DNA from: a virus
Taxonomy: Duplodnaviria; Heunggongvirae; Uroviricota; Caudoviricetes
Virus record (IMG/VR): IMGVR_UViG_2537561944_000042
Length of the DNA: 57,168 nt
Strand: one strand, 5' to 3'
The notes beneath the pieces are model-generated. The model did no database searches, was not told the origin of the DNA, and saw only the letters and a program-made list of their open reading frames with translations. The position numbers were made by a program, and so were the translations under genes. Below are positions 14,035 through 15,252 of this stretch, piece by piece. The number at the start of each line of letters is the position of its first letter. The first letter of the stretch is position 1.

Positions 14035-15252
14035 TTATATAGCTGGTGACTCTTTTCGAAGAGCATCAAGGTAGTCAGCGTACCATTGCATCATTTCTCG
14101 TCTTCCTTCAAGGTAACGAGCATGGTTGTATGTACCACGAATGCTGTTTTTGTCCGTATGTGCAAGTTGCATTTCAATCCATGCACTATTGAATCCTTGC
14201 TCGTGTAGAACAGTACTCATTGTATGACGAAATCCATGCCCGGTAGCTTTTTTGTCATAGCCAATCTTCTTCAAAACCATATTGACGCTTGCATCGCTGA
14301 TAGGCCTGTTAACATCATTTCTTCCGGCAAAGATGTATCTGTATCTTCCAGTCAGTTCTTTGAGGATTTGCAGAGACTGGATTGCCTGATCTGACAGAGG
14401 GACGATATGCTCCTTCCTCATTTTCATCCGGGTCGGAGGAACTTCCCATATCTTTTGGGTAAAATCGATCTCACACCATTCCCCCATACGTAATTCTACT
14501 GTTCTCAGCCCTGTGAGCATCAACAATTTTGTAGCTTCACGGGTTACAATACTGCCGGTTTAGTTTTCGAGTTTGTATAAAAACTCTGGTAGTTCAGGAG
14601 GACGCAGGAAAGGGTAATGTGTTCGCTTATAGCTTTTCATTGCTATAACCAGATCAGAAGCTGGATTGTATCGTGCCCGACCTGTAACAATGGCATACCG
14701 AAACACTTCACCACATCGTTGGCGAACTTTATTAGCTAGCTCGCAGGCTCCTCGGCTTTCGATACGCTGAAGAACTGCGAGAAGTTCAAGAGGTTCGATT
14801 TCACTAATGGGTCTGTTTCCAATGTAGGGAAACACATTATTTTTGAATGCTCTGTCGACATAATCAGCGTAGCTGGCAGACCAGCCTGAAACTTTTGCGT
14901 TGTACCACTCGGTGGCGATTGCGGCAAAAGTTCTTCCTTCGGAAAGGTTTTTCTCAAGATTTTCAGCTTTCTTGACTTCACCGGGATCTTTACCATCGGC
15001 ATGTATTTTCTTGGCTTCATCCCGACGTTTGCGAGCTTCAGCCAATGTAATAGTTGGATAGGTGCCAAATGATAGTTTCTTTTCCTTCCCCGCATAGTGG
15101 TACTTCATTCGCCAGTACTTTGAGCCGTTAGGATTGACCTGAAGGTAGAGCCCACCACCATCGGCAATCTTATAAATTTTATCTTTGGGTTTGGCTGTTT
15201 CAACTTGTCGAGCTGTCAGTGGCATCTGGGGGCCTCGCAATAGATTGACCAA
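14035..15252 (-). pseudogene. P4-type tyrosine integrase interrupted by a single in-frame TAA stop at 14560..14562
   Basis: ORFs 14560..15252 and 14035..14526 are in the same frame (1218 nt = 406 codons) and together span a full-length integrase; the 10 codons between the stop and the second ORF (TGSIVTREAT) are also open. Confidence 0.8.

Follow-up and report, generated by a model that had tools for sequence, protein, structure and literature searches.

A probable inherited nonsense mutation in the integrase of an argW genomic island in an O26:H11-like Escherichia coli chromosome

The stretch of DNA analyzed here, a window of 57,168 nucleotides, contains a tyrosine integrase gene that is interrupted by a single in-frame stop codon. 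This interruption is very probably an inherited nonsense mutation, from TAC (Tyr222) to TAA, in the integrase of a genomic island of about 25 kb at the argW locus of an O26:H11-like E. coli chromosome. Translation would end after 221 residues, and at most a fragment comprising the arm-binding and the core-binding domains would be made. The gene is an ordinary pseudogene, the internal stop of which is already recorded in public annotation (RefSeq/PGAP), and no explicit account of it was found in the literature on argW, O26, integrative elements, and the 2009 O26 genome.

Conceptual translation of the minus strand from 14035 to 15252 yielded a frame of 406 codons with one internal stop in addition to the terminal stop. 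The internal stop is a TAA, which reads 'tta' on the plus strand at positions 14560-14562. The mechanical ORF list contains the two parts as separate minus strand ORFs in the same frame, one of 230 amino acids (14560-15252) and one of 163 amino acids (14035-14526), both of which start from a TTG. The initial annotation had described two ORFs in one frame, with the TAA as the sole interruption of the 406 codons, and the translation confirmed this description. The probability that the other 405 codons are free of a further stop by chance is about (61/64)^405, i.e., roughly 4e-9. The true start of the integrase gene is the ATG at 15225-15223 and not the TTG at 15252, because this start agrees with the 1191-nt gene that is annotated in RefSeq genomes. 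Therefore, the stop is codon 222 of a gene of 396 codons (14035-15225, minus strand), which, according to Pfam and the RefSeq coordinates, encoded a P4/CP4-type tyrosine integrase. The translatable N-terminal part comprises 221 codons (14563-15225, minus strand) for the arm-type DNA-binding and central core-binding domains only, and the untranslated remainder of the catalytic domain (14035-14559, minus strand) contains all of the putative catalytic motifs. The first in-frame TTG or ATG past the TAA is located 11-13 codons downstream, and inspection by eye revealed no obvious Shine-Dalgarno sequence for a restart after the TAA.

The domain structure of the stop-masked conceptual product is that of an integrase. 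It comprises an Arm-DNA-bind_3 domain (PF13356, residues 3-88, 97.9 bits), a Phage_int_M domain (PF22022, residues 100-193, 115.5 bits), and a Phage_integrase domain (PF00589, residues 206-371, 94.7 bits versus a cut-off of 27.1), the last of which spans the stop. All three are far above their cut-offs and in the correct order, and the domains are continuous across both sides of the stop, so that the frame covers the arm-binding as well as the catalytic region, as had been proposed initially. A match to the NCBIfam integrase family NF007246 (288.6 bits) stays under the curated cut-off of 434. Sequence matches in the PDB link the arm domain to a CP4-like integrase (3jtz, 3ju0) and the central domain to the CPS-53 integrase (2kj8). 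The in-frame motifs TGLR (241), HGFR (330-333), LAH (356), and RGTY (366) are all found downstream of the TAA, and they are conserved in IntS. The assignment was made by visual comparison with the general pattern of tyrosine recombinases rather than by structural alignment, and on that basis we regard Arg241, His330/Arg333, His356, and Tyr366 as the putative catalytic residues. The gene thus matches the profile of the PF00589 family and lacks an uninterrupted catalytic ORF, and it is filed as a pseudogene of this family because the stop at codon 222 is located upstream of all putative catalytic motifs. The arm and central domains are those of the P4/CP4-like DUF4102 arm-binding type, and the disabling change relative to intact orthologs, which recurs in independent assemblies, is characteristic of a pseudogene. 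Judged from its sequence, the gene belongs to the P4/CP4-like DUF4102 tyrosine integrases, albeit as a pseudogene.

Alignment to orthologous integrases had been suggested for the identification of the ancestral codon, and two intact alleles were available for this comparison. Strain WP3-W18-CRE-03 encodes the intact integrase WP_001131472.1 (99.8% nucleotide identity) and strain R1 contains a more distant intact allele (96.5% nucleotide identity). Both read AAC-TAC-ACC, versus AAC-TAA-ACC in the window and in strain 11368, which gives TAC (Tyr) as the ancestral codon. The IntS residue homologous to Tyr222 is a phenylalanine. The comparison of alleles points to a mutation from Tyr222 (TAC) to stop (TAA), which corresponds to a G>T change at position 14560 of the plus strand. 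The second difference from WP_001131472.1 is codon 208 (14602-14604, minus strand), which is CTT (Leu) in both intact alleles and in strain 11368, and CGT (Arg) in the window. This Leu208Arg missense change, caused by a base change at 14603, is private to the window, and none of the complete genomes that were searched had a 100% match to the integrase gene of the window. The initial annotation had stated that there is no other decay. This is valid insofar as otherwise only the stop differs from the intact alleles, but the copy analyzed here has the additional private substitution.

The distribution of the two codons was followed with a 61-nt query centered on the stop codon, which was compared with 5426 complete genomes. 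Matches were found in 270 genomes, 79 of which contain the exact TAA 61-mer, while the remaining 191 differ by one or two bases. When the query was edited to TAC, the exact 61-mer was found in 162 genomes; the other 29 have the TAC version with one further mismatch, and the R1-type divergent allele that was read also has TAC. The listed TAA genomes, which include 11368, H19, and FWSEC0001, are all O26:H11, O111:H11, or similarly large (5.5-5.9 Mb), and their accession prefixes indicate several different depositors. In some genomes the integrase gene is covered only in part. Hence the TAA allele is not private to one strain, and its distribution indicates that it was fixed before the divergence of the sampled O26:H11/O111:H11 genomes. 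The inactivation had initially been regarded as recent. The distance of only one nucleotide from the intact alleles is in agreement with that view, but fixation across the O26:H11/O111:H11 lineage shows that it is not a strain-specific event. At the substitution rates of E. coli, a 1.2-kb gene rarely gains a substitution on the timescale of a clonal complex, and therefore the clean frame dates the event poorly. The T versus G at plus strand position 14560 represents a clean single-nucleotide marker of the lineage.

The best matches of the window are E. coli O26:H11, O111:H11, and unserotyped strains with similarly large genomes (99.9% identity). The window is collinear with the O26:H11 strain 11368 in three blocks with 99.96-99.99% identity, and two IS differences are located between these blocks. 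One is a 1.26-kb IS3-family element (17239-18502) that lies within a DUF551-like gene of the P22-like prophage and is missing in strain 11368; its orfA (100 aa, 18136-18438) and orfB (272 aa, 17282-18100) are both on the minus strand. The other concerns an ORF of 786 amino acids with an HsdR N-terminal (nuclease-like) domain (8942-11302). It is intact in the window and in WP3-W18-CRE-03, and it is split in strain 11368 by an IS3-family insertion that is absent from the window. Within the region 13900-15500, position 14603 is the sole difference from strain 11368, and the TAA is common to both. The respective gene of strain 11368, ECO26_RS35390, is a RefSeq pseudogene with an 'internal stop' and the same coordinates. 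Nine integrative elements have been reported for this strain (PMC5592225).

In strain 11368 the region begins with yfdC, argW (tRNA-Arg), an intact intS, and P22-like genes for structural proteins, lysis, nin functions, replication, immunity, and recombination, which are followed by torI. After torI come the integrase pseudogene, a PapB-like gene, an IS3, the HsdR_N gene, IS66 copies, and hypothetical genes. The distal island encodes an Ag43/Cah adhesin, a DUF932 protein, antirestriction and RadC-like proteins, and yeeU, and it is followed by cscBKAR and a truncated dsdX. The integrase-proximal cargo occupies positions 1-14034 of the window, as judged from the collinear annotation of strain 11368 and from Pfam, and the island extends beyond the left border of the window. 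The cargo comprises hypothetical genes, IS66-family copies, the HsdR_N ORF, a frameshifted IS3-family transposase, a PapB/FocB-like gene, and an AT-rich spacer. The neighboring island ORFs of 338, 272, and 244 amino acids had no Pfam match. The spacer, which adjoins the 3' side of the integrase gene (12770-14030), has a length of about 1.2 kb, a GC content of only 26-31%, and no ORF longer than 43 amino acids; no Rfam family matched anywhere in the window, the spacer included, at the gathering threshold. The ORF list contains no recognizable gene for an RDF/excisionase near the island integrase.

Both flanking direct repeats of the island of about 25 kb have been kept. The integrase-proximal repeat (15401-15415; CTGCAGGGGACACCA on the minus strand) reproduces 15 nt of the 3' end of argW; it occurs only once in the window and doubles as the attR core of the P22-like prophage. 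Both full-argW loci that were compared have the identical sequence at the 3' end of argW, and the repeat corresponds to the published 16-nt core of KplE1, CTGCAGGGGACACCAT (PMC2951348). In strain 11368 the distal repeat of 19 nt, TGGTGTCCCCTGCAGGAAT, is found between yeeU, which it closely follows, and the csc genes. It abuts the sucrose utilization genes and the truncated dsdX (L003, 11501-16847); csc insertion at the argW-dsdX hot spot is known, and the argW-dsdCXA interval has been cited as highly variable. ARAGORN detected no complete tRNA in the window, because the window ends exactly at the start codon of intS; the full argW lies about 160 bp past its right end. In genomes without the prophage the integrase start is 176 bp away from the complete argW, irrespective of whether the allele is TAC or TAA, and the same cargo follows behind it. 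The assignment of the gene to the island, which had been made in the initial annotation, is thereby well founded, and an integrase at the 3' end of a tRNA gene together with direct repeats is the arrangement of a tRNA-associated island. The island is also damaged elsewhere, i.e., it contains the frameshifted IS3, a partial IS66, and several IS insertions.

The region from 15416 to 57168 is occupied by a P22-like prophage that is largely complete and forms a tandem with the island at argW. Its gene order is torI, erf, kil, cI/cro/cII-like genes, replication and nin genes, lysis genes, terminase, and portal, followed by P22-type capsid and tailspike genes, an O-antigen acyltransferase gene, and intS. 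The excisionase gene torI (15489-15689, minus strand), which is annotated as torI in all best matches, belongs to the prophage and not to the island, and the same is true for the intact intS (56011-57168, minus strand), the product of which shares 48% identity with the island integrase and employs the same argW core. Some TAA genomes lack the prophage but are otherwise identical. A query across the island/prophage junction was covered to at least 80% at one place in 65 genomes, one of which matches at only 94% identity, versus 79 genomes with the TAA. Since the prophage is variable among TAA genomes, the nonsense allele is independent of it, and the comparison identifies the P22-like phage as a variable, later arrival at the same argW core.

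The sequences next to the three repeats are different. An inverted pair of GGCCCCCA motifs is located between the integrase start and the proximal repeat (15227-15276). GGSCCCCA has only two matches in the 57-kb window (15227-15234 and 15269-15276), and the distal end of the island in strain 11368 has two further copies that are about 20 bp or less apart. The two motifs of the inverted pair might be arm-type sites of the island integrase, but they are weak candidates. The arms of the prophage contain repeated (A)TTTTACCC/GGGTAAAA motifs, two of them in attR (15474-15494) and three upstream of intS, and a k-mer comparison of the four att flanks revealed none of these motifs at the island ends. 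Published arm-type sites of IntS contain TAAA (PMC2951348), and the motifs of the prophage arms are consistent with that. Copies of the ATTTTACCC/GGGTAAAA form are found on both prophage arms, at 15474-15494 and, outside the window, upstream of intS (L002, about 6300-6365). A third copy in the window (14457-14465), which falls within the integrase pseudogene, probably matches by chance.

Other explanations for the interrupted frame have been considered. The initial annotation had named a sequencing error as the alternative, and indeed the TAA is just one base away from the intact alleles, so that an error in the sequence or its assembly could simulate a nonsense mutation in a gene that is really intact. 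However, the identical TAA 61-mer is present in 79 separately assembled genomes, including 11368, H19, and O111:H11 strains, and PGAP annotated an internal stop in all three TAA genomes whose annotation was read. Therefore, an error is excluded at the level of the lineage, and its residual probability is negligible. Almost as improbable is the view that the integrase is that of the adjacent lambdoid/P22-like prophage and that the stop cripples the prophage instead of the island. Such a connection could be suggested by the proximity of torI, which is encoded on the same strand and is separated from the integrase start by only about 260 bp. This assignment was rejected on the basis of the architecture: the 15-nt argW core sits between torI and the integrase, at its opposite, argW-adjoining end the prophage encodes an intact intS of its own, as in the module layout published for KplE1/HK620 (PMC2951348), and the pseudogene as well as intact alleles adjoin argW in genomes that have no prophage at this site.

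Two further possibilities accept the TAA as genuine and question its consequences. The split gene could still be functional, either because readthrough or recoding yields a full-length enzyme, or because the 221-residue fragment acts as a DNA-binding protein in autoregulation or interference at the argW core. This is improbable, although it is the least improbable of the alternatives. TAA is the most efficient terminator in E. coli, and no recoding system is known for it. The N-terminal ORF with its two DNA-binding domains and the upstream region are unchanged apart from the one missense change in the window, and autoregulation by binding to the att site has been documented for the related IntS (PMC2951348). 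However, so few substitutions have occurred since the mutation that the conservation of the fragment is uninformative, and in some genomes the gene is covered only partially. That the fragment is still expressed and has become a domesticated DNA-binding remnant instead of a dead gene is quite unlikely; if true, its recognition of the argW core that IntS also uses could enable it to influence the integration or excision of P22-like phages at this site, or to silence the end of the island. Equally unlikely is an excision of the island in trans by the neighboring IntS, in which case the island would not be locked. The two integrases are 48% identical, and the 15-nt core is common to all three repeats, but the flanks differ, with IntS-type motifs on the prophage arms and the GGSCCCCA pairs at the island ends, and it is because of these different arm motifs that cross-excision by IntS is regarded as unlikely. 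In addition, the island is still present in both TAA genomes without prophage that were examined.

Under the nonsense mutation of the island integrase as the preferred explanation, a product that ends at residue 221 would lack the entire active site and should not be able to perform strand exchange. The island would then no longer be able to promote its own excision despite the intact att repeats; this loss is postulated because the direct repeats are intact but no catalytic residue is translated. The nonsense codon can thus reasonably be assumed to lock the island in place, as the initial annotation had put it, and the island would now be carried as a fixed chromosomal segment. A P22-like phage later integrated into the same argW core and now separates the island from the tRNA gene. 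As the island has decayed in other ways as well, its mobility may be blocked by more than the stop in the integrase. Other P4-like integrases that are encoded in such genomes may exhibit cross-activity on the island, and low-level readthrough of the TAA may occur. It is textbook knowledge that horizontally acquired DNA can become fixed through the decay of the integrases of tRNA-linked islands. Such an inactivation would explain the stability of the argW island in O26:H11/O111:H11 chromosomes while the adjoining P22-like prophage varies, and the two recombination modules at argW can now be assigned to their own elements.

The closest relative of the pseudogene is the WP_001131472.1 allele of WP3-W18-CRE-03, which is the same gene at the same argW-adjoining position, and which is followed by the same cargo, i.e., the PapB/FocB-like gene, the frameshifted IS3, and the HsdR_N protein. 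The IntS proteins of KplE1/CPS-53 and of HK620-, Sf6-, and P22-like phages have the same three domains and 48% amino acid identity, and their elements share the argW 3'-end core CTGCAGGGGACACCA(T) with the island. In contrast to the island integrase, IntS is intact, it is encoded at the opposite end of the element from its RDF TorI, and it has other arm-type repeats, whereas no recognizable RDF gene adjoins the island integrase. Similarities also exist to CP4-6, CP4-44, CP4-57, and tRNA-linked pathogenicity islands with decayed P4-like integrases, which are likewise linked to a tRNA gene and have a DUF4102-type integrase in the tRNA-proximal position. The Ag43/Cah adhesin, the YeeU-type antitoxin, the antirestriction and RadC-like genes, and the many IS are reminiscent of the cargo of CP4-type islands. 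Therefore, both the cargo and the position of the island are similar to those of CP4-type cryptic islands. Inactivated island integrases are familiar, for example the P4 integrase of KpLE2 is interrupted by an IS3 (PMC3032704). The CP4-type/P4-like cases involve an IS insertion or a deletion, while a single nonsense substitution is found here.

A second interrupted frame was observed in the prophage, where a small DUF2737-like early gene of 54 codons (20596-20760, minus strand) is interrupted by one in-frame stop at codon 29. This gene is also noted with an 'internal stop' in strain 11368.
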